Part shown: positions 24,212 through 33,580 of the stretch, in pieces | How positions within the stretch are numbered: position 1 is the stretch's first letter | Layout: each line of letters opens with the position of its first letter | Origin: Candidatus Thorarchaeota archaeon | GTDB taxonomy: Archaea; Asgardarchaeota; Thorarchaeia; Thorarchaeales; Thorarchaeaceae | Direction: 5' to 3' | Assembly: GCA_016933575.1 (NCBI GenBank) | Contig: JAFGAR010000007.1 | Span: 1-39,760 of the forward strand | Length of the DNA: 39,760 nt | Program-made: the position numbers and the translations under genes | Notes under the pieces: generated by a model | What the model was told of the DNA's origin: nothing | What the model saw: only the letters and a program-made list of their open reading frames with translations | The model's database searches: none

Positions 24212-26425
24212 ATGTTCATAAGAATTCTGGGGCTTGACTCACTGAAACATCTAATTGAAACATTCTTTCCTTTGAGCGAAGTGAACAAGATAGCGGAGAT
24301 GGAATCAACTGGTTTTGGACGACGACACTACAGACCAGTCTATGTTATACACAAGTGGTGGGCAAGGCGTCTTGGATCAATATTCCGTTCCATTATTCTT
24401 TACTCACTGATTGATGAGAATTTGTCGGAAAAAAAACAGAAAAAGGAGAATCTTTGGAATTACTATTCACAAGATATACAGCTCAAAGGTAAAGTCGTAT
24501 TGGACCCAATGATGGGGGGCGGTACGACTATAGTAGAAGCATTGAAACTAGGTTGTAAGGTTGTTGGTGGAGACCTCAATCCTGTATCTTGGTTTATCGT
24601 GAAAAAAACAGTAGAAGATGTCAATCCTCAATTATTACATCAAACTCTTGTGAATCTAGAACAAGATTTAGGAGAAGAACTCAGAAAATACTATCGTACG
24701 ATATGTCCAGAGTGTGGAAAGGAAGCAGAGGGAATATACTTCTTTCATTACAAAGAGGTGCCTTGTCCAAAATGCGCAAAATTAATTCCACTCATGCATA
24801 ACTTCTTCCTTGCAAGAGGGATAAACAAGAACGAAGATTATGTGATTTGTCCTAAATGCTGGAATGTTTTTCGCACAAAAAGTGCTAGAAATGTGACAAA
24901 ATGTCCAAACTGTGATGAAAAATTCGTTGCTACGAAGAGGAAATCTGCTAATGGACGTCAGTTCAAATGCAGTAATAGTGCTTGTGGAACACATAGTATA
25001 GTCAAAACTATTCAAAAAATGAAAAAAAGACCAAGTGAAAAACTGTATGCCATCGAGTTCTATTGCAAATATTGTGATGATTCTAGGAATAGAGAATTAA
25101 AGAATGGTAGAGGGTATAAAGCAGCAGACAAATTCGATTTAGATCTTCTTGCAAAAGCAGAAGAAGAATTTCTTAGAATCCAAGAACAACTTCCAATCCC
25201 AGACAGCACGATTCCACTTGGAGAAGAAACAAAACGAGCACTGAATCATGGATATAGATGCTTTAGAGATATGTTCAACTCACGCCAGCTTCTTAACTTG
25301 GGCAAGATTTACAGATGGATATTGGATATCACTGACCAGAACCTGAAAGAGTTCTTGATTTTGGCATTTTCGAACAGTCTCAAGTATAATAACATGTTTG
25401 CAAAGTATAATGCAACAAGAGGATTCATCACTGATATCTTTAGGACTCATTCATTTTCTCCATCATTGGCACCAGTTGAGGCTAATTGTTATGATATGAC
25501 CAAGGGGAGAGGTGCGTTCAAATCTTTTGTTGAATTGCTGATTGAAGGAAAGGAATATTGTCGAGCTCCTTTTGAACGGTTTTTTGATGGAAATATAAAG
25601 AAAAAAGTGATATTACATACAAAAATCGATGGAAAACTAGCGAAGGAATATTCTGACTTTGAAGATGGAGCTAATGTACTGCTTCGTTGTGGGTCATCTG
25701 AATCTCTCCCAATTCCAGATACATGTATTGATGCAGTGATAACAGACCCGCCATATTTTAGGAATGTCATGTATTCTGAATTATCAAATTTCTTCTATGT
25801 TTGGTTGGTAATGGGATTAAGAGAGAGCTACAAAGAGTTTGGACTCGATTTGGTTCCTTGGCAGGATGAAGTGATTGAGAATACTGTTCAGCAGAAGGGA
25901 CAAAGAGAATATGTAATAGGACTTAGACAGATACTATCTGAATCAAGAAGGGTATTGGTTCCAGATGGTGTTCTGGTATTTACTTTTCATCACAAGAGGA
26001 TTAAGGCGTGGGGAGCGCTCATGGAGGCTTTATTGTCTTCTGGGTTTTATGTTATTACAACATATCCAGTGAGGAGCGAAATGAAGGCTTCAACTCACCT
26101 TCATGATATGGAGAACATCTCATTCGACATGATCTTTGTCTGTAAGAAGAGAGAGAGGTCTTCGAAACTCATTTTATGGACAGATCTTAAACAGGCAGTA
26201 ATGCAATCTGTTTCTGACACAATAATGTATCTTCAAGAAAATGATCAAACTATGAACATACCAGATATCTCAGCAATTATTCTAGGAAAATGGGTTCAAC
26301 TGTATTCTCAGTATTATCCTAATATTCAATATATTACAAAAAGAGTCTATCCGAATGAGGCTTTTGAACTCATAGAAGGAGATTTTGAAGATGTCTTAAC
26401 GGGTATTTGTAAGAGTAGTTTATAG
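24212..26425 (+). CDS. Adenine-specific DNA methyltransferase with Zn ribbons (DUF1156/COG1743-like)
   Basis: IHKWWARR, VLDPMMGGGT (SAM binding), multiple CxxC, VITDPPY (catalytic), FTFHH. Confidence 0.9.
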   Translation: MFIRILGLDSLKHLIETFFPLSEVNKIAEMESTGFGRRHYRPVYVIHKWWARRLGSIFRSIILYSLIDENLSEKKQKKENLWNYYSQDIQLKGKVVLDPMMGGGTTIVEALKLGCKVVGGDLNPVSWFIVKKTVEDVNPQLLHQTLVNLEQDLGEELRKYYRTICPECGKEAEGIYFFHYKEVPCPKCAKLIPLMHNFFLARGINKNEDYVICPKCWNVFRTKSARNVTKCPNCDEKFVATKRKSANGRQFKCSNSACGTHSIVKTIQKMKKRPSEKLYAIEFYCKYCDDSRNRELKNGRGYKAADKFDLDLLAKAEEEFLRIQEQLPIPDSTIPLGEETKRALNHGYRCFRDMFNSRQLLNLGKIYRWILDITDQNLKEFLILAFSNSLKYNNMFAKYNATRGFITDIFRTHSFSPSLAPVEANCYDMTKGRGAFKSFVELLIEGKEYCRAPFERFFDGNIKKKVILHTKIDGKLAKEYSDFEDGANVLLRCGSSESLPIPDTCIDAVITDPPYFRNVMYSELSNFFYVWLVMGLRESYKEFGLDLVPWQDEVIENTVQQKGQREYVIGLRQILSESRRVLVPDGVLVFTFHHKRIKAWGALMEALLSSGFYVITTYPVRSEMKASTHLHDMENISFDMIFVCKKRERSSKLILWTDLKQAVMQSVSDTIMYLQENDQTMNIPDISAIILGKWVQLYSQYYPNIQYITKRVYPNEAFELIEGDFEDVLTGICKSSL

Positions 26426-26447: not shown

Positions 26448-26699
26448 ATGAGAACGATAAGGATGCAAAGAATGTGGGACCGAACGAAAGCGGAGTTTAT
26501 TGAAGTTCCTGTACAAGTATCTCCGGATGCATCACTCTCATGCAGAGCTTGCAGGTATTTTGATAATGAATCCAACTTATGCTTGGGGGTTGGTTCAACA
26601 TTCTATCTGAGAAAGATTCCTTTCTATAATTATACACCCAGAACAAATGAGTGTGAAGTGAGACTACCTCCAGATCTTTTCTCATTTATAGAAATATAG
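26448..26699 (+). CDS. Small Cys-containing hypothetical protein
   Basis: CRACRYF...C...C; 22 nt after the MTase; overlaps the ecfT 3' end convergently. Confidence 0.6.
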   Translation: MRTIRMQRMWDRTKAEFIEVPVQVSPDASLSCRACRYFDNESNLCLGVGSTFYLRKIPFYNYTPRTNECEVRLPPDLFSFIEI

Positions 26700-27498
26700 C
26701 AATCTGAGGTAATAATCCACTAGCTAATAAGATGCAAAGTAAGAGATAAGCAAAAGAACATAGTAGAATCAAACTATCTCGCAGTTTCCATTCTGATTTT
26801 CTCATATATGTGCGTGTGCTGCTAAAACCAAATCCTCTTCCATCCATAGACATTGATAACGCTTCAACTCGTGATAATGATGATACAAGAAGAGGAAAGA
26901 AAGTGTATTGGATTGTTCTCAAAATTTTGTGAAGACCTCCAATCTCAGGTTCAATGCCTCTAGACTTCTGAGCTAATCTTACAGTTTGGTTTTCAGCATC
27001 AAATAGAGGAAGGAACCGTAGTGCGATGACTAATGCAAAGCTGTATCTGAAGGGAATCCGAAGCAGAGTGAGTGAATGGGCGAGTAGGGTTGGATCAGTA
27101 ATCGAAACAAAGAGCATGCTTGAGAAAATAATAAGCAAAAACCGTATTGATATTGATAAACCACGTTCAACCCCATAGCTGGTCACAGGAAAGAAAGGAC
27201 CAAAATCATGTATTTGAGGAATTATGAAACCAAATAGAGTTCCATTGGGTGTGATTATAATTTGAAAGAGAAAAAGTACAATTGAGAACAACACAATAAA
27301 TTTTGTACGCCTTCTTGAAAGCTGTAATGAAACTCTTGATAATTTGAATCCTGATAGAACTGGAGCAAGTAGGATAAGACTCAACTGCCAACTCTGGTAA
27401 ATCATGATTCCAAGCAGTAAAATAATTAACAACATGAGATTTAGTAAAGGATTGAGCTTACTTGTTGGATGTTGTACATATCCAAGATTGGAGGACAT
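26686..27498 (-). CDS. ecfT: ECF transporter transmembrane T component
   Basis: LNP, ALRFLP, the two coupling Arg motifs AQKSRG and MDGRG. Confidence 0.93.
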   Translation of the reverse strand: MSSNLGYVQHPTSKLNPLLNLMLLIILLLGIMIYQSWQLSLILLAPVLSGFKLSRVSLQLSRRRTKFIVLFSIVLFLFQIIITPNGTLFGFIIPQIHDFGPFFPVTSYGVERGLSISIRFLLIIFSSMLFVSITDPTLLAHSLTLLRIPFRYSFALVIALRFLPLFDAENQTVRLAQKSRGIEPEIGGLHKILRTIQYTFFPLLVSSLSRVEALSMSMDGRGFGFSSTRTYMRKSEWKLRDSLILLCSFAYLLLCILLASGLLPQIAIFL

Positions 27499-28950
27499 CT
27501 AGAAAGACCCCTCCCCTGAATCTGTAAATTCTTCATAGCCGAGTTTTCTCAATTGTTGGAATACTGAATCTGGTACTCCATCAAGCAAAATTGTACCATT
27601 TTCCATGAAAACAGCTCGATTACAGTGATTTTTCACGAAAAATGGATTGTGAGTGACTACTACAGCGGCTCCGCCTTTGTTTGCTGTTTCAGTCAAATTG
27701 TTCAAAATGAAATGTCTACCATCATAATCTTGGCCTATGAAAGGCTCATCAAACAGCAGAATCGCTGGATCATGAGCTATTCCCGAGCTAATATTCAAGC
27801 GCCGTTTTTGACCGTGACTCAGTGAGAACGGGTTTCTATGCTTGAGATGAGCAATACCCGCATGTTCCAAGATTATATTTGACTTTTGGGTACTTTCCTC
27901 GTTCAGCAGACGACCGATTTCCAAGGTCAATATCTGTTCCTTCCAGACTGTTTTTTCAAAAATTTGATGATTTGGGTTTTGAAACACTATCGACATCGTT
28001 TTGGTGAGTTCTTTTCTATCAATATCTTGGATAGAAATACCGTTAAGATACACTTGTCCAGTTTCTAATGGTAATAACCCACTCAGCAGAGCAAGAAGAG
28101 TACTCTTTCCGGAACCATTCGCACCCATAAGTGCAATGATTTCGCCGGGATGTATCTCAACACTTGCTTTGTTTACTGCTCTATTAGGACCATAGGAATA
28201 ACTGATATTATGACAAGAGAGAAGACTTGTTTTAGGAGAGATTGAGGGCAACAATGTGCTCTTTGACTCATTTGAAGTAATGTCAGCTCCTTCTGATATC
28301 TTGCCTTCGATTATTGATAATATTCTATCAGTGACTGACCGTACCGCACCAAGATTATGTTCTATACAAATGACTCCAACATGTTTCTCTTTGAGACTCA
28401 ATAGAATTGATTGAAGCTTCTTTACACCCCTAGGATCAAGACTGGCTGAAGGCTCATCGAGAATGAGATATTTGGATTGGCAAGAGAGCATTGAAGCGAT
28501 GCATACCCTCTGTTTTTCACCACCAGAGATTCCATAGGTAGGCCTGTTAAAGAGATGTTGTGAGTCGACTTCTGTGAGCGAGTTCTCTACTAGTTGGAAG
28601 ATCATTTGAGGTTCGGTTCCATAATTTTCTGGACCAAATGCAATTTCATCAGAAACTCGAAGAGTACAGATTTGGCTATCTGGGTCCTGCTGTACAAGGG
28701 ATACTCTCTTGGAGAACTCTGGGATTGATAGATGACTAACATCTTCGTTGTCTATCAGAATCGATCCTGAAAAATTCCCCTTTATACTGCGAGGTATGAA
28801 CCCTGTTAGGCATTTTGCAAAAGTTGACTTGCCCGAACCTGTAGGCCCAGTGATTGTGACAATTTCACCACGAGAGAGCTGAAAATCAATGGACCTTAAA
28901 ACCTGTGTTTTTCCATCGTATGAAAAATTCAGATCTTGTACTTCTAACAT
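27499..28950 (-). CDS. ecfA: ECF transporter fused double ATPase (A-A')
   Basis: GPTGSGKST and GANGSGKST; ISGGEKQR and LSHGQKRR; LDEP and FDEP. Confidence 0.95.
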   Translation of the reverse strand: MLEVQDLNFSYDGKTQVLRSIDFQLSRGEIVTITGPTGSGKSTFAKCLTGFIPRSIKGNFSGSILIDNEDVSHLSIPEFSKRVSLVQQDPDSQICTLRVSDEIAFGPENYGTEPQMIFQLVENSLTEVDSQHLFNRPTYGISGGEKQRVCIASMLSCQSKYLILDEPSASLDPRGVKKLQSILLSLKEKHVGVICIEHNLGAVRSVTDRILSIIEGKISEGADITSNESKSTLLPSISPKTSLLSCHNISYSYGPNRAVNKASVEIHPGEIIALMGANGSGKSTLLALLSGLLPLETGQVYLNGISIQDIDRKELTKTMSIVFQNPNHQIFEKTVWKEQILTLEIGRLLNEESTQKSNIILEHAGIAHLKHRNPFSLSHGQKRRLNISSGIAHDPAILLFDEPFIGQDYDGRHFILNNLTETANKGGAAVVVTHNPFFVKNHCNRAVFMENGTILLDGVPDSVFQQLRKLGYEEFTDSGEGSF

Positions 28951-28960
28951 GGATGACCGC

Positions 28961-30031
28961 CTAGTAAATCGCTAAGGTAGTGACTTGACGCACCCACAGA
29001 GAACCATCATAATTATCTGCGATTAACCAAAGCCCATCGCTAGTTGATGTTAATAGCATATTGTAATCGTTCATTATAGCATCTAAATCCTCAAATCGGA
29101 CGGAATAACCGTCCCTGGCACTGACTGCTAGTCCGGATGCTTCAGGATTCGGGTTTGCTATCTGAAGAATTGTTAAGAGTAAGACACCGGTGTAGTTTGC
29201 AGGAGGTAAGTGAGTGTATGCTCCAATCAATTCTGCTTCAATTGTTACTTCAGATCCGGCAAAGTCTGATAGTCTGAAAGTGAATGGATTTTGAACAAGC
29301 CCCTTGACCTCGCATGCAAAGGGATCTGCAAACGCTTGAGCAACATTAGTAGTATAATAGACTGTACTCACAGTTAGAATTATGATGAATAGTACTGCAG
29401 GTACGTTTCGACGGAGTAGTGTCTTTGGATTTCTCATTGGGATTGTACTTCTTCGACTTTGGAAACCGGTTATTGAGCCTGCGTCATTAAGAAATTCTAA
29501 GGTTTCCCACGCAAAATAACCCGCAAAAATCACTCCTGAGCAAAATGCAAGAATAGTGATAACACCGATATATATGAACGGAGCACCTGTGAAGTATAGC
29601 ATTTGCAATACAATCACATTCGCGGAGGCAGACACCCCAGCACTCAACCACCATATTATGCGTGAATTATCTCCAAGATTTTTGATGGAGCCTGCGGCAA
29701 AGGCACCCACATCTACAACAATCCCTTGAGCTAGTGATACGAAGACTATAGCAATTCCATGGGTGCTTCCTGTAAACAATTCAACCATTCCTTTGAGTAA
29801 ACCACCAGCTGTACCAACTCCATGTCTAGGCACAATAGCTCGAATCAATACTAACCAGAAGACATGAAGTCCAGCCATGAACTGACCCGCACCAAAAGGA
29901 ACACCCAGTGCGAGATTCACAAGATTACCTAGGTACCCAACAAACGTACTCAAGGCGCCTCCTAATGAACCCAAGATTGCTATTGTCACAATGTCCCTCG
30001 TCGTAATCGATTGATTGGATTGTAAGGTCAT
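28961..30031 (-). CDS. ECF S-component (YkoE-like) fused via an extra TM to a molybdopterin-binding-like domain
   Basis: TTRDIVTIAIL...IVPRHG...ELFTGS.HG...QG S-component; C-terminal VKGLVQNP, YTGV.L..IL, A.DGY, L.LI, WVRQV. Confidence 0.8.
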   Translation of the reverse strand: MTLQSNQSITTRDIVTIAILGSLGGALSTFVGYLGNLVNLALGVPFGAGQFMAGLHVFWLVLIRAIVPRHGVGTAGGLLKGMVELFTGSTHGIAIVFVSLAQGIVVDVGAFAAGSIKNLGDNSRIIWWLSAGVSASANVIVLQMLYFTGAPFIYIGVITILAFCSGVIFAGYFAWETLEFLNDAGSITGFQSRRSTIPMRNPKTLLRRNVPAVLFIIILTVSTVYYTTNVAQAFADPFACEVKGLVQNPFTFRLSDFAGSEVTIEAELIGAYTHLPPANYTGVLLLTILQIANPNPEASGLAVSARDGYSVRFEDLDAIMNDYNMLLTSTSDGLWLIADNYDGSLWVRQVTTLAIY

Positions 30032-31290
30032 GTGGAGATCACCTCAAGATACGCTACAAATCGAACCCATCTGGACCCAGCAGAAACAATGGTTGTTAGT
30101 GAGGTTAGAGTTGCATCTTCATTGCTGTAAGCGCCATCAGGAGGGATCATCACTAATCTCATTCCATCAGCCCATTCAAGGATCCGAGTGGAGTTGTATT
30201 TATAGGCAAGAATCATATCTCCTTGAATTTCAGCCCATGTTTCGTTTGGATATACATTGGAATAGCAAAATTCCTGAGTGTACCCATCAAATGATTTGAC
30301 TAGCAAAGTATCATTGACTGCCATACTGCCAATCAGCTCAAGCAAATCGGAAATTAGAATTCCTTCATAGATACCTTGTCCTCTCCAATTTTCAAATTGA
30401 TTCTGAAAAGAAGAAAAGCCGCTAATTGGAATCATCTGAAGCAGGTCTTCCAGTGAAAGGGTCATATCTTCACCATTAGCTCGAATGACTACTGTATCAC
30501 GAGGAATTGAAGGAGGATCTATCAAGACTGGAACAATAGTAATTCCAGATTCGTTCAATGTGACATTAACAAAATGATAGATACCACCAGTGTCCTCATC
30601 AGCGTACAAGCTAGCTCCTGCCCCACCAGTCACAACATATCTTACTCCATTAATGGTGGAATCATTGAAGAAGTGTATATGACCAGCAAAGACAACATCA
30701 ACATCTTGTTCCTCAAACAGGGTCATGAGCCGTGATCCTGTTGTTGTATTGATTAGTGCATGATTCTCTTCAGGACGTGGATCGAAGGGTGGGATATGTG
30801 TGAAGACAAATTTATAGTCGGAATTGGATTGTGCTAGGTCTTCTTCAAGCCAAGTAAATTCAGGTTCAGATACATCTCCAGAAGAGGTATTGAATACTGC
30901 AAAGTGAGCTGTGCCAAGATTAAAGGAATATGTTGAACTTCCAAAATACTGTTCATACAATACTCCACCATTATTCTTTATGTCATGGTTGCCTATTGTG
31001 GTATACACAGGAGCACTACATTGATTGAATTCCGACATAATTGCTTGATATTGAGTATCTCCTCCAAAGGGGGTAAGGTCTCCACAATGAAACAAGAAAT
31101 CAGGCCTAAGTGAGTTGGCAATTGTAACTATTTGTTCGACACCACCTTGGTATCCTTGGGAATCGCCGAAAACATAGAAATTGAGTGGTGAATCATCCTC
31201 ATTTATTCCTAACAAGAAAAGTGCAGTAGTGGTACTAACCAGTATGATAATAATGACCGAAGATGCCAGTACAACCTTATGCTGTTCCAT
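30028..31290 (-). CDS. Membrane-anchored calcineurin-like metallophosphoesterase fused to a molybdopterin-binding-like domain
   Basis: N-terminal TM; GDSQ, GDL, GNHD, THIP, GHIH; C-terminal LSLEDL, YEGILISDLL, S.DGY, ILAY, RLV, WVRFV; many N-x-S/T sequons. Confidence 0.85.
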   Translation of the reverse strand: MEQHKVVLASSVIIIILVSTTTALFLLGINEDDSPLNFYVFGDSQGYQGGVEQIVTIANSLRPDFLFHCGDLTPFGGDTQYQAIMSEFNQCSAPVYTTIGNHDIKNNGGVLYEQYFGSSTYSFNLGTAHFAVFNTSSGDVSEPEFTWLEEDLAQSNSDYKFVFTHIPPFDPRPEENHALINTTTGSRLMTLFEEQDVDVVFAGHIHFFNDSTINGVRYVVTGGAGASLYADEDTGGIYHFVNVTLNESGITIVPVLIDPPSIPRDTVVIRANGEDMTLSLEDLLQMIPISGFSSFQNQFENWRGQGIYEGILISDLLELIGSMAVNDTLLVKSFDGYTQEFCYSNVYPNETWAEIQGDMILAYKYNSTRILEWADGMRLVMIPPDGAYSNEDATLTSLTTIVSAGSRWVRFVAYLEVIST

Positions 31291-31396: not shown

Positions 31397-32188
31397 TTAG
31401 TCTTCTAGCAGACCTTCATTTCTTATTCTTTCAGAGAGCTCGAAAATGTTCCTATCATTACGCCAGATTGATGTTTGCTTCAGACTATCAGCGATTGCTG
31501 TAGTGAACATCTTTTCTAGAACTGCGGTTCTTGTTTCGCCGATTAGTGAAAGATACGAATCAAAAAGACGCCATGAAAGTGTTCTTTTTCTTTGGTCAAA
31601 GATAGGATCTGTGTCAAGCAGACTGGCGCTGACACCGCCAATATCGAGTGTCCAATGGCCTACACGTGATTCCTCAAAATCAACACCATAGATACCATCC
31701 CCGTGACAGATAAAATTTCTCAGACGGGGATCTCCCTTGATTTGCTTGTGTATGGTATGATACTTGTAATACCATTTGGCAAGTGTATCAATGAGCTGAG
31801 GCTCAAAAGTATGATTGATTCTGTCAACAAGGATTTCACCAGAAATATGAGTCATCAGAATCACTCCATCTTGGGCTGCTAACACCTCTGGAACGGTCAG
31901 ACCTTGTTGGAAACTTGATTTCAAGAGAGTGAGCTCAGTATCATATTTGCCCGAAATGAATAACTTTGCCACTAGATTGATGTGTTTTGAGTCGTTACAC
32001 TTGATTATCAGATGAAGTACAAGATTCTTCTTACTTCTCAGACGAGAGACAGATTCGACTATTGTTCCTTCTCCGTATCTCTTTGAGAGAATCAAGGCGA
32101 GTGTATCAACTTTCTCTGGTTGTAATTGATTTCCGTCAAGTCCTACTGGAAGACCATCAAACCATCTCATCAAATCCATAGCATACAT
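31397..32188 (-). CDS. Protein-kinase-like fold enzyme (APH/RIO/Bud32-like)
   Basis: VAK..E, VPEV, KGDPRLRNF catalytic loop, GVDFE. Confidence 0.75.
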   Translation of the reverse strand: MYAMDLMRWFDGLPVGLDGNQLQPEKVDTLALILSKRYGEGTIVESVSRLRSKKNLVLHLIIKCNDSKHINLVAKLFISGKYDTELTLLKSSFQQGLTVPEVLAAQDGVILMTHISGEILVDRINHTFEPQLIDTLAKWYYKYHTIHKQIKGDPRLRNFICHGDGIYGVDFEESRVGHWTLDIGGVSASLLDTDPIFDQRKRTLSWRLFDSYLSLIGETRTAVLEKMFTTAIADSLKQTSIWRNDRNIFELSERIRNEGLLED

Positions 32189-32491: not shown

Positions 32492-32500
32492 AGTTTCAGA

Positions 32501-32608
32501 TGGCGGGCGCGCCAGGATTCGAACCTGGGACCTCCAACTTCGAAGGCTGGCGCCTTATTTACCTCGCATAAAAGATATTTTCATGCAACCAGGCTAGACT
32601 ACGCGCCC
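32501..32608 (-). tRNA. tRNA-Arg(UCG) with 30-nt intron at 19/20 (32559-32588)
   Basis: Acceptor GGGCGCG/CGCGCCC+GCCA; CCAGC-CTTCGAA-GTTGG; BHB helix GCCT/AGGT; splicing restores A20. Confidence 0.93.
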
Positions 32609-32656: not shown

Positions 32657-33580
32657 CTATAATCTATTATCATCCTCGATAACATTTCTAGCAGAATCAG
32701 AACTCGTCTTCAGAACCTTATGATTGAATCCTTTTTTCACATATATTTTCTCCAATGGATTGCTTTCAAGGTTGACTTCGTACATATCATCAATGAATTG
32801 TAAAGGGCGTAAGTCAATGGTTGTTAACTGATTGTTGCTGAGATCAAGACCATTGAGATATTTTAGATGTGCAAGTGGAGCTATATCAATGGAGTGTAGA
32901 GGCGTTCTATTGATGACAAGAGAATATAATCGGATACACTCTTGAAGTGGTGACAGGTCTATTGTTTGGTAGCTATTTTCTCCAATGTTCAGTGTCTTTA
33001 GATTGGTACATCCACTGAGAGGCGTTAGATCAAGAGTGTTGAGATTGTTGCGATTGATAGTCAAGATCTCAAGATGATTACACGATGAGAGAGGTTCGAG
33101 ATTTAGCTCTTGCAAATTGTTGAGAGAGAGAGAGAGTTGTTCCAAGTGTTGAAGATTGGACAAAGGTTCTAGATCAATTACTTCTAATTCACAACCTGTC
33201 ATCCTCAGGGTTTTGAGATTCTTGCATTTTTCTAATGGATACAAATCAATCAATCGTAGAGGGTTATAGGATAGTGAAAGCCTCTCAACGTTGCACTCTG
33301 AGCCAAGACTAAGAAGATTGATTGTTTCAAGTTGATTGTGCGCAAAATCTAGCCAAGAGAGCCTGTGACAAGATTGTAATGGTGAGAGGTCGACTGTTCT
33401 AAGATTATTCCTAGGTAGACTTAATTTTTCAAGGTTGACACAGGCTGACAAAGGAGAAAGATCTATTGACTCGATATTGGCTGAAGTAATAGTGATTTGT
33501 GTTGAATCACTGATGACCTCCTCTATGTACGAACCATCAGTCAACCTGCATCTGAGCCCGATTATCGCCAGAAGACTCAC
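32657..33580 (-). CDS. Leucine-rich repeat protein (~10-11 repeats)
   Basis: Repeats of L..L.L..N.L..IDL.PL..C. Confidence 0.92.
   Translation of the reverse strand: MSLLAIIGLRCRLTDGSYIEEVISDSTQITITSANIESIDLSPLSACVNLEKLSLPRNNLRTVDLSPLQSCHRLSWLDFAHNQLETINLLSLGSECNVERLSLSYNPLRLIDLYPLEKCKNLKTLRMTGCELEVIDLEPLSNLQHLEQLSLSLNNLQELNLEPLSSCNHLEILTINRNNLNTLDLTPLSGCTNLKTLNIGENSYQTIDLSPLQECIRLYSLVINRTPLHSIDIAPLAHLKYLNGLDLSNNQLTTIDLRPLQFIDDMYEVNLESNPLEKIYVKKGFNHKVLKTSSDSARNVIEDDNRL

Follow-up and report, generated by a model that had tools for sequence, protein, structure and literature searches.

What would an importer carry if its substrate-binding component and a surface phosphoesterase both ended in a domain resembling the molybdopterin-binding domain of sulfite oxidase? 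The question is raised by four genes in the window, that is, the whole 39,760-nucleotide stretch of Candidatus Thorarchaeota DNA analyzed here. The first-pass annotation had read them as a capture-trim-import machine for either a Mo/W-pterin or a phosphorylated vitamin such as thiamin or HMP phosphates.

Organization of the operon

Four minus-strand open reading frames were confirmed; in the direction of transcription the first two overlap by 4 nt, 10 nt separate the second from the third, and the third abuts the fourth. These coordinates and Pfam/NCBIfam searches, by which the domains were assigned, bore out the four tightly coupled parts named in the first-pass annotation, which had overlooked a probable fifth gene encoding a kinase. 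The features are as follows.

31397-32188, minus strand: APH/RIO/Bud32-like kinase, probable fifth member (263 aa, weak family matches)
30028-31290, minus strand: metallophosphoesterase with domain X1 (420 aa, PF00149, E 1e-15)
30031-30519, minus strand: domain X1 (residues 258-420), predicted Cys-less sulfite-oxidase/PruR fold (AlphaFold, Foldseek, and VIA-align)
28961-30031, minus strand: S component with a seventh helix and domain X2 (356 aa, PF09819, E 1e-15)
28964-29326, minus strand: domain X2 (residues 236-356), a shorter predicted Cys-less sulfite-oxidase/PruR fold (Foldseek)
27499-28950, minus strand: fused ECF ATPase A-A' (483 aa, two ABC domains, TIGR04520/TIGR04521)
26686-27498, minus strand: ECF T component (270 aa, CbiQ/EcfT, PF02361, E 5.5e-25)

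Because one operon encodes S, T, and two ATPase domains, the system is, by its sequence, a group I (dedicated) ECF importer with predicted ATP-driven uptake. Gene order was kept among Thorarchaeotes: the S-X2 gene immediately follows the phosphoesterase-X1 gene in 20 of 21 loci, the 21st being cut at a contig end, and the complete run including T was found in all 11 extended loci. A riboswitch search of the window itself gave none, and a promoter/terminator scan gave results at chance level. Three RNA runs of the same study covered only the tRNA.

The 30028-31290 product is predicted to be a membrane-anchored surface metallophosphoesterase, with one transmembrane helix (residues 11-29), a calcineurin-like domain (approximately 36-257), and X1. 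Its nearest solved structures, purple acid phosphatase and the GpdQ-type and Rv0805 phosphodiesterases, include both mono- and diesterases. All five PF00149 metal-binding motifs are present, the first (DxH) as D-x-Q in 36 of 37 homologues, and GD(S)Q, GD, GNHD, H165, and GHxH are retained in 36-38 of 38 homologues. N-glycosylation sequons occur at 2.1 per 100 aa in phosphoesterase-X1, compared with 0.9 in the ATPase. While the anchored enzyme described in the first-pass annotation was thus confirmed by PF00149 and the transmembrane helix, it is not an obligatory part of the system, being missing from Hermodarchaeote operons and from most of the Bipolaricaulota type.

An interval of 106 nt separates the kinase gene from the phosphoesterase gene downstream of it, and the kinase, having no transmembrane helix, is predicted to be cytoplasmic. 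Matches to APH, RIO1, and Bud32 were weak, and bacterial homologues exceeded the PF01636 cut-off. The conserved Lys, Glu, KGD-R-N, and DFE provide the ATP-binding Lys, helix-C Glu, catalytic Asp-x4-Asn, and metal-binding DFx of the APH/RIO families. The gene was found in 23 of 23 importer genomes tested versus 2 of 13 Moa-positive Thorarchaeotes, and in other genomes 20 of 23 homologues sit beside genes for an ECF T component, MobB, an X domain, a ModE-type HTH protein, or MOT1. The kinase therefore probably belongs to the importer system, and its gene context suggests a small molecule rather than a protein as substrate. Outside Thorarchaeia it was detected in only 20 of 50 importer genomes, and the phosphoesterase and the kinase do not always occur together.

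Fold of domain X

Single-sequence Pfam and PDB searches with domain X were marginal or blank (PF00174, E 0.06 and 0.0016), and resolution came from structural models and a wide profile. TAL-effector matches in that profile were rejected as repeat artefacts. The X1 AlphaFold model (pLDDT 88) matched PruR with Z 14.3 (rmsd 2.9, 134 residues aligned; Foldseek and VIA-align), SoxC with Z 13.6, and SorA with Z 13.5, the next unrelated fold scoring Z 5.6, and the X2 part of the S-X2 model matched SoxC, SorA, YedY, and PruR in Foldseek. X1 and X2 share approximately 22% identity. The models thus bear out the sulfite-oxidase/MsrP-type layout that had been proposed, and neither C-terminal domain was modeled as an unrelated fold.

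Both X domains are accordingly modeled with the pterin-binding fold of sulfite oxidase and PruR, and both lack the Cys that ligates the metal: X2 has no Cys at all, the only one in X1 is not part of the hairpin, and a hairpin Cys occurs in 1 of 44 X homologues. Since this ligand is missing, X is predicted to be a binder and not an enzyme. The catalytic domains of the sulfite oxidase family (SorA 2BLF, SoxC 2XTS, and MsrP/YedY 1XDQ) share the fold at Z 10-14, whereas X also lacks their N-terminal segment, dimerization domain, and Tat signal.

A D and a W are invariant and G-Y is near-invariant in X1 homologues, and X2 conserves D307 (34/34), Y309 (33/34), and W346 (29/34). Over 44 X domains, D (44/44), Y (37/44), and W (36/44) putatively correspond to PruR N/D102, Y104, and W160, matched by motif and not by superposed models; these PruR residues hold the pterin (PMC11194511, PMC13259868). 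As in the sulfite oxidase family, the Arg/Lys of the two C-terminal motifs is usually retained (32/44 and 37/44).

PruR is likewise a small extracytoplasmic Cys-less sulfite-oxidase fold with a D/N-x-Y and a C-terminal Trp motif (PDB 7KOS, 7KOM, 7KP2, and 7RKB; PMC11194511). However, PruR is a soluble signaling partner of DcpA, whereas X is fused to transport proteins; the neighbors of X in 80 loci are ECF genes, with no DcpA-type periplasmic-domain regulator operon among them. PruR binds small, metal-free pterins other than Moco (PMC11194511), which lends some support to import of a metal-free precursor and to import of another pterin, both considered below. With regard to the latter, the PruR hairpin is truncated and carries a Pro-Trp motif with Trp at the Cys position, whereas both X models have long hairpin strands and no Pro-Trp.

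Comparison of the S component with YkoE

The S component was modeled as the six-helix S fold (helices within residues 11-184) followed by a seventh helix (approximately 210-235) and an external X2, a fusion also found in Bacillota and Chloroflexota clusters. By both structure and sequence its best match was YkoE (5EDL; Foldseek E 4e-6, TM by target 0.77), and database names read thiamin/HMP permease. YkoE belongs to YkoEDC, the group I ECF system by which Bacillus subtilis imports thiamine (PMC5037267), with which the present system shares a PF09819-type S component, a fused A-A', a dedicated T, a single operon, riboswitch control in bacteria, and the pocket Glu. It differs in the seventh helix, the external X2, the phosphoesterase-X1 and kinase partners, and a distribution that follows the loss of moa genes.

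These similarities raise the possibility of a thiamine or HMP(-phosphate) importer in which the phosphoesterase acts on TPP or TMP and the kinase re-phosphorylates the product. An HMM alignment showed that two of the five YkoE thiamine ligands are kept, namely Glu77 as E84 (33/34) and Gln95 as Q102, the latter in Thorarchaeotes and in 10 of 34 overall. Tyr46, Trp49, and Asp131 are replaced by conserved Ala, His, and Gln (A53, H56, and Q143), which speaks against thiamine.

Requirement for the cofactor without detected synthesis genes

The host genome encodes nine AFOR_N proteins (AOR family, tungsten enzymes) and 2-3 PF00384 proteins, while a search for MoaA, MoaB, MoaC, MoaE, MoeA, and TupA detected none of them, in agreement with the expectation of Mo/W enzymes without moaA and moaC. 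In two other genomes (G002 and G003) the tup-moa cluster is bordered by two genes whose host counterparts lie 79 nt apart in contiguous DNA (C212), so the gap at this site is not an assembly artefact. Insertion of the importer in place of the deleted moa cluster was not supported here, because the two sites differ.

Among 23 importer genomes, MoaE was missing from all, and MoeA and TupA from 22. A search for ModA/WtpA-type proteins found nothing in the host and only weak matches to 500-aa proteins in three other genomes. The additional loss of MoeA, MoaB, and TupA points to a metal-loaded cofactor; the host needs the cofactor, apparently cannot make it, and probably takes it up in finished form. 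Alternatively, a metal-free precursor (cPMP, MPT, or dephospho-MPT) would be imported and the metal inserted by an unrecognized route. The missing metal-ligating Cys of X fits such a precursor, and many bacterial hosts that retain the synthesis pathway could finish it. In Thorarchaeotes, however, it could not be finished by known chemistry without MoeA, TupA, and MoaE, and we consider precursor import very unlikely.

Two other pathways do not explain where the importer occurs, as both show the same state in importer-positive and importer-negative genomes. ThiC, whose absence from the host might suggest thiamine uptake, was missing from each of the 37 Thorarchaeotes tested, whether or not they carry the importer, and an MptA-family GTP cyclohydrolase occurred in both importer-positive and Moa-positive genomes (5/5).

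Distribution across Thorarchaeia

In 87 Thorarchaeia genomes, which are MAGs and as relatives not independent, we found the importer in 50, MoaC in 30, neither in 7, and both in none (17.2 expected). The two states coexist inside four genera, and a FastTree RpoB tree implied at least 11 state changes, an approximate count since many nodes are weak. Both groups carry 5-12 AOR genes per genome. In five Moa-positive genomes, the DNA from mtnA/tRNA-Arg to a methylase gene is contiguous and contains no ECF genes. One exception (G013) has the importer plus moaB-moeA/tupA, each on short contigs. Two genomes with AORs, G037 (96% complete) and G040 (95%), have neither the importer nor the moa route, and a wider S-X2 profile detected no S component in five genomes lacking both routes.

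In Thorarchaeia the system and TupA likewise exclude each other, as would be expected if the system were an unusual tungstate or molybdate importer replacing TupABC. TupA, however, is encoded in one cluster with the moa genes and is therefore lost along with them, and tungstate is of no use without pterin synthesis or an insertase.

Riboswitches and gene neighbors in bacteria

In 11 of 27 scanned bacterial loci the operon is immediately preceded by the Moco/Wco riboswitch (RF01055), in place of the THI box of YkoEDC; in two more, the riboswitch precedes an upstream tupABC. P3 was missing from all six aptamers inspected, which are therefore of the tungsten type, as riboswitches without P3 have been linked to the tungsten cofactor (PMC2408646). 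Neighbors of the importer elsewhere include MobB, ModD, TupA, and a TOBE regulator. The exclusion breaks down outside Thorarchaeia, where MoaC is retained in 27 of 50 importer genomes, all 27 bacterial; control of both synthesis and uptake by one riboswitch is usual for vitamins.

No TPP riboswitch was found in 30 homologous loci, compared with 13 loci with an upstream RF01055. A thiamine importer would also leave X and the exclusion with moa genes unaccounted for, and with the thiamine ligands replaced and ThiC uninformative, the vitamin branch of the original proposal is disfavored to the point of being extremely unlikely.

Moco/Wco riboswitches control oxyanion transporters as well (PMC2408646), and one Chloroflexota cluster has X joined to a ModA-type domain, both of which would suit an oxyanion importer. 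Nevertheless, tupABC adjoins the importer system in two bacterial loci (L141 and L152), and the phosphoesterase and kinase would be left without a role, making oxyanion import most improbable.

Another pterin, such as methanopterin, neopterin phosphates, or a folate-like compound, would require only an indirect link to moa loss, and methanopterin and neopterin intermediates do bear phosphate esters. Nonetheless, the riboswitches and the MobB, ModE, and ModD neighbors indicate a pyranopterin, and with MptA and the hairpin also standing against it, this alternative is highly unlikely.

Proposed function

Taking these results together, we consider it likely that the importer takes up a metal-loaded W/Mo pterin cofactor, most likely W-MPT or a close derivative. 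This Mo/W-pterin branch of the capture-trim-import proposal is supported by the X fold, the conserved neighborhood, the W/Mo enzymes, and the absence of moa genes and, beyond these, by the bacterial Moco/Wco riboswitches. The transported species is uncertain because Moco, when free, lacks stability and is sensitive to oxygen (PMC7849362).

In the proposed mechanism, the outward-facing Cys-less X domains, whose fold and topology suit this role, would catch and shield cofactor that the enzymes of other cells release in anoxic sediment. The anchored phosphoesterase, with intact active-site motifs, might then remove a nucleotide, turning an MGD-type cofactor into MPT, or the terminal phosphate, or both. 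X2 would hand the product to the S pocket for import by the T/A-A' module, the ECF parts of which are all seen. Finally, the co-occurring cytoplasmic kinase would re-add the phosphate before AOR- and DMSO-reductase-family enzymes are loaded. We somewhat favor this re-phosphorylation of the imported pterin as the kinase reaction. The fuller reading, that most Thorarchaeia are tungsten-cofactor auxotrophs living on scavenged, intact metal-loaded cofactor through a five-gene cycle including a dephospho-molybdopterin kinase, appears to us evenly balanced.

Such trim-import-rephosphorylate salvage is known from Haemophilus NadN, PnuC, and NadR, where a surface metallophosphoesterase, a membrane importer, and a cytoplasmic kinase likewise act in turn on a phosphorylated cofactor. 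The cofactor, transporter family, and kinase family are different, and the parallel is an analogy only. Because Moco is unstable, the long-standing assumption has been that each cell makes the Moco that it uses. Intact cofactor does pass between organisms, stabilized by protein binding, in dietary uptake by Caenorhabditis elegans, an animal and, according to the same paper, the only organism for which an uptake route had been described, with no transporter known (PMC7849362). Our literature search, with subscription papers outside its coverage, found no description of such a microbial importer system.

If the proposal is true, it would add a first prokaryotic importer for Moco/Wco, a first pterin-cofactor substrate for ECF transporters, and a new kinase activity, and the database labels of thiamine or cobalt transporter on these genes would be corrected. 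The binder, phosphoesterase, transporter, and kinase are named candidate proteins for testing cofactor transport and stabilization, which can be done now because cultured Anoxynatronum carries the system (L146 and L147). The importer would account for the 50 of 87 Thorarchaeia genomes that encode several tungsten enzymes without the synthesis pathway, and would turn the cofactor into a traded, vitamin-like good of anoxic communities.

The importer genes and their surroundings

An ORF check bore out the sizes and junctions that the first-pass annotation had given for the four importer genes, which are listed here with a co-directional kinase-like ORF 106 nt upstream.

31397-32188 (-), kinase-like ORF with APH/RIO-type catalytic residues and no TM helix
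30028-31290 (-), 420 aa, calcineurin-like phosphoesterase with a single TM helix at the N terminus and domain X1 at the C terminus
28961-30031 (-), 356 aa, PF09819 S component, a seventh helix and domain X2
27499-28950 (-), fused ECF ATPase
26686-27498 (-), ECF T component

Close homologues carry the source label Candidatus Thorarchaeota. The seventh helix of the S component is preceded by a basic stretch, and in 11 loci the density of N-glycosylation sequons in the phosphoesterase was roughly double that in the ATPase, the excess being small for X1 and X2. Because both features fit such a topology, the soluble domains (phosphoesterase, X1, and X2) are predicted from sequence to face outward.

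The importer system is real, and the four-gene neighbourhood described in the first-pass annotation is indeed conserved: the order was kept in 20 of 21 Thorarchaeote loci, with the 21st interrupted by a contig end, and the run through the T gene was complete in all 11 extended loci. In two genomes from a different Asgard family, judged Hermodarchaeote-like against named loci, a tandem X1-X1 protein replaces the phosphoesterase. A GTDB scan confirmed 231 stretches, the best 80 of which are from Bacillota, Bipolaricaulota and Thermotogae-labelled MAGs, as well as from Thermoplasmata and further Asgard groups. Many of these 80 loci end at contig ends, and the counts, partial loci included, were 76 for further X proteins, 75 for the ATPase, 62 for T, 44 for the phosphoesterase, and 10 for the kinase. 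Two Bacillota MAGs (L235 and L236) have a second, stand-alone S component of the same family in a run S-MobB-kinase away from the main operon.

A large DNA methyltransferase (24212-26425, +; N6_N4_Mtase, DUF1156, zinc ribbons) is convergent with the T gene and keeps this site in most Thorarchaeotes, with or without the ECF operon. A second ECF module of the source genome (contig C57:114769-117239, +) has separate A, A', and T genes with no S component adjoining and is likely a group II module. At 32500-32567 (-) lies a tRNA-Arg(TCG) with its 5' part missing or replaced; its Rfam score of 28.9 bits falls just below the cut-off, and ARAGORN with default settings did not call it. Relatives carry the gene intact at this position, and no second Arg-TCG gene turned up in the source assembly. 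Since an LRR gene (32657-33580) intervenes here between the remnant and mtnA, the damage may reflect a past insertion or a misassembly.

Fold and pocket of domain X

The sulfite-oxidase-type layout proposed earlier for domain X was supported by AlphaFold models carrying the X domains (pLDDT 84.5 and 88.2), which matched this fold only. The X1 model gave Z-scores of 14.3 for PruR (a pterin-binding protein), 13.6 for SoxC, and 13.5 for SorA, against 5.6 for the next unrelated fold, and Foldseek assigned both X copies in agreement. A profile built from 44 X sequences reached SorA at E 1e-6 and PruR at 3.5e-5. X lacks the metal-ligating Cys, a hairpin Cys of any kind occurring in just one of the 44 homologues, and the X domains are therefore not molybdoenzymes. 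Conserved Asp (44/44), Tyr (37/44), and Trp (36/44) correspond by motif pattern to N/D102, Y104, and W160, by which PruR holds neopterin (PMC11194511, PMC13259868). X is predicted to be a binder, as PruR is, yet it is not a PruR: the PruR hairpin is truncated, which is thought to exclude Moco, whereas the hairpin is long in both X models. On this basis, it is plausible that X has a pocket able to take a larger pterin.

The source genome also encodes a stand-alone paralogue (C156:152896-154029, +) with a TM anchor and a pair of X1-type domains (44% identity to X1), which probably serves the system as an additional surface binder; genome G015 has a similar gene at the same site. Very large multi-X surface proteins (up to 1500 aa) adjoin bacterial operons (L146:48-4568, L141:11647-15039, L131, L136, and L144).

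Importer and cofactor synthesis

Co-occurrence with Mo/W enzymes and absence of moaA and moaC, both raised in the first-pass annotation, were found in the source genome. It encodes nine proteins of the AOR (tungsten-enzyme) family, two to three of the DMSO-reductase family, and MobB, while at 85.5% completeness family or protein searches did not find MoaC, MoaE, MoeA, or TupA and tblastn did not find MoaA or MoaB. On source contig C212, 79 nt separate the two genes that in G002 and G003 border tupABC-moaA-moaE-moaC-moaB-moeA, and the cluster is therefore truly absent from that site. A second, partial RpoB (C17:6-1511, +; 53% identity to the window's copy) is possibly contamination, which is 6.9% for the bin.

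Among 61 Asgard genomes, the importer occurred in 23, MoaC or MoaE in 33, and both in none. Among all 87 Thorarchaeia, a sample overlapping the former, 50 had the importer, 30 MoaC, seven neither, and none both (17.2 expected; nominal p 5e-17, inflated by kinship). Both states are present inside four genera, and the RpoB tree requires at least 11 changes between them. In five Moa-positive genomes (G003, G006, G017, G008, and G021), contiguous DNA from mtnA and tRNA-Arg to the methylase lacks the four importer genes; the kinase is still present there in G008 and G021. Because the S-X2 tree largely parallels the RpoB tree and the moa cluster location differs between lineages, these comparisons suggest an importer that is old in Thorarchaeia, with some lines having retained or reacquired synthesis. 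As exceptions, G013 has both systems, each on short contigs, and neither route is present in G037 or G040, both of which have AORs. These last two, near-complete Asgard genomes in which no moa genes or S component of the importer's family were found, may use another importer; they have anchored X-domain proteins (L247:421-1944 and L245:1252-1902, respectively), and G037 also has the kinase. Outside Thorarchaeia, 27 of 50 importer genomes keep MoaC, all 27 bacterial, and all five archaeal ones are without it.

AOR counts were 5-12 in importer and Moa genomes alike, and MoeA and TupA track the moa genes. Since the insertase (MoeA) and the tungstate transporter (TupA) are also gone, the imported cargo should be already metal-loaded. 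Tungstate itself as the substrate would be useless to a cell without pterin synthesis, and the presence of MptA in both groups alike speaks against import of other pterins.

The kinase-like gene

The kinase, a probable fifth gene of the system, was present in all 23 importer genomes and in two of 13 Moa-positive Thorarchaeotes, and two Lokiarchaeia-like genomes gave weak matches a few kb from tupA. In other phyla, among genomes picked for having the importer, 20 of 23 kinase homologues adjoin ECF T (11), MobB (5), an X protein (2), a ModE-type HTH (1), or a MOT1 molybdate transporter (1). In G054 (L214:350-1294), a DUF166 gene adjoins the kinase homologue; tupA and the moa genes are a few kb away. 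Cofactor salvage usually combines a surface phosphatase with a kinase inside the cell; by this design the kinase would re-phosphorylate the imported substrate, at lower confidence because phosphoesterase and kinase are not always paired.

Riboswitch control and substrate

Of 27 bacterial loci, 11 carry the Moco/Wco riboswitch RF01055 immediately in front of the operon, and two others carry it in front of an upstream tupABC; several hosts are close relatives, and independent cases are thus fewer. Stem P3 was absent from all six aptamers inspected, a form associated with the tungsten cofactor (PMC2408646). The same study noted RNAs lacking P3 ahead of presumed sulphite oxidase genes in Syntrophomonas wolfei and left them unexplained (PMC2408646); the products of these genes may be X proteins.

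The thiamin or HMP phosphate alternative of the first-pass annotation is disfavoured. The S component family is named after YkoE, the thiamine S component of YkoEDC, and Glu77 is kept, but conserved His, Ala, and Gln stand in place of YkoE Trp49, Tyr46, and Asp131; ThiC is missing from 37 of 37 Thorarchaeotes with or without the importer, and the riboswitch is the wrong one, with no TPP riboswitch in 30 homologous loci searched. Import of a Mo/W-pterin cofactor is the likely function of the system.

According to published accounts, Moco uptake had been described only for C. elegans (PMC7849362) and the passage of pterins across bacterial membranes is unexplained (PMC13259868); we found no literature description of this importer system or of prokaryotic Moco uptake. 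The importer belongs among the group I ECF transporters and is related to YkoEDC, but it does not pass the thiamine-specific tests, and the class of substrate that it transports is probably new.
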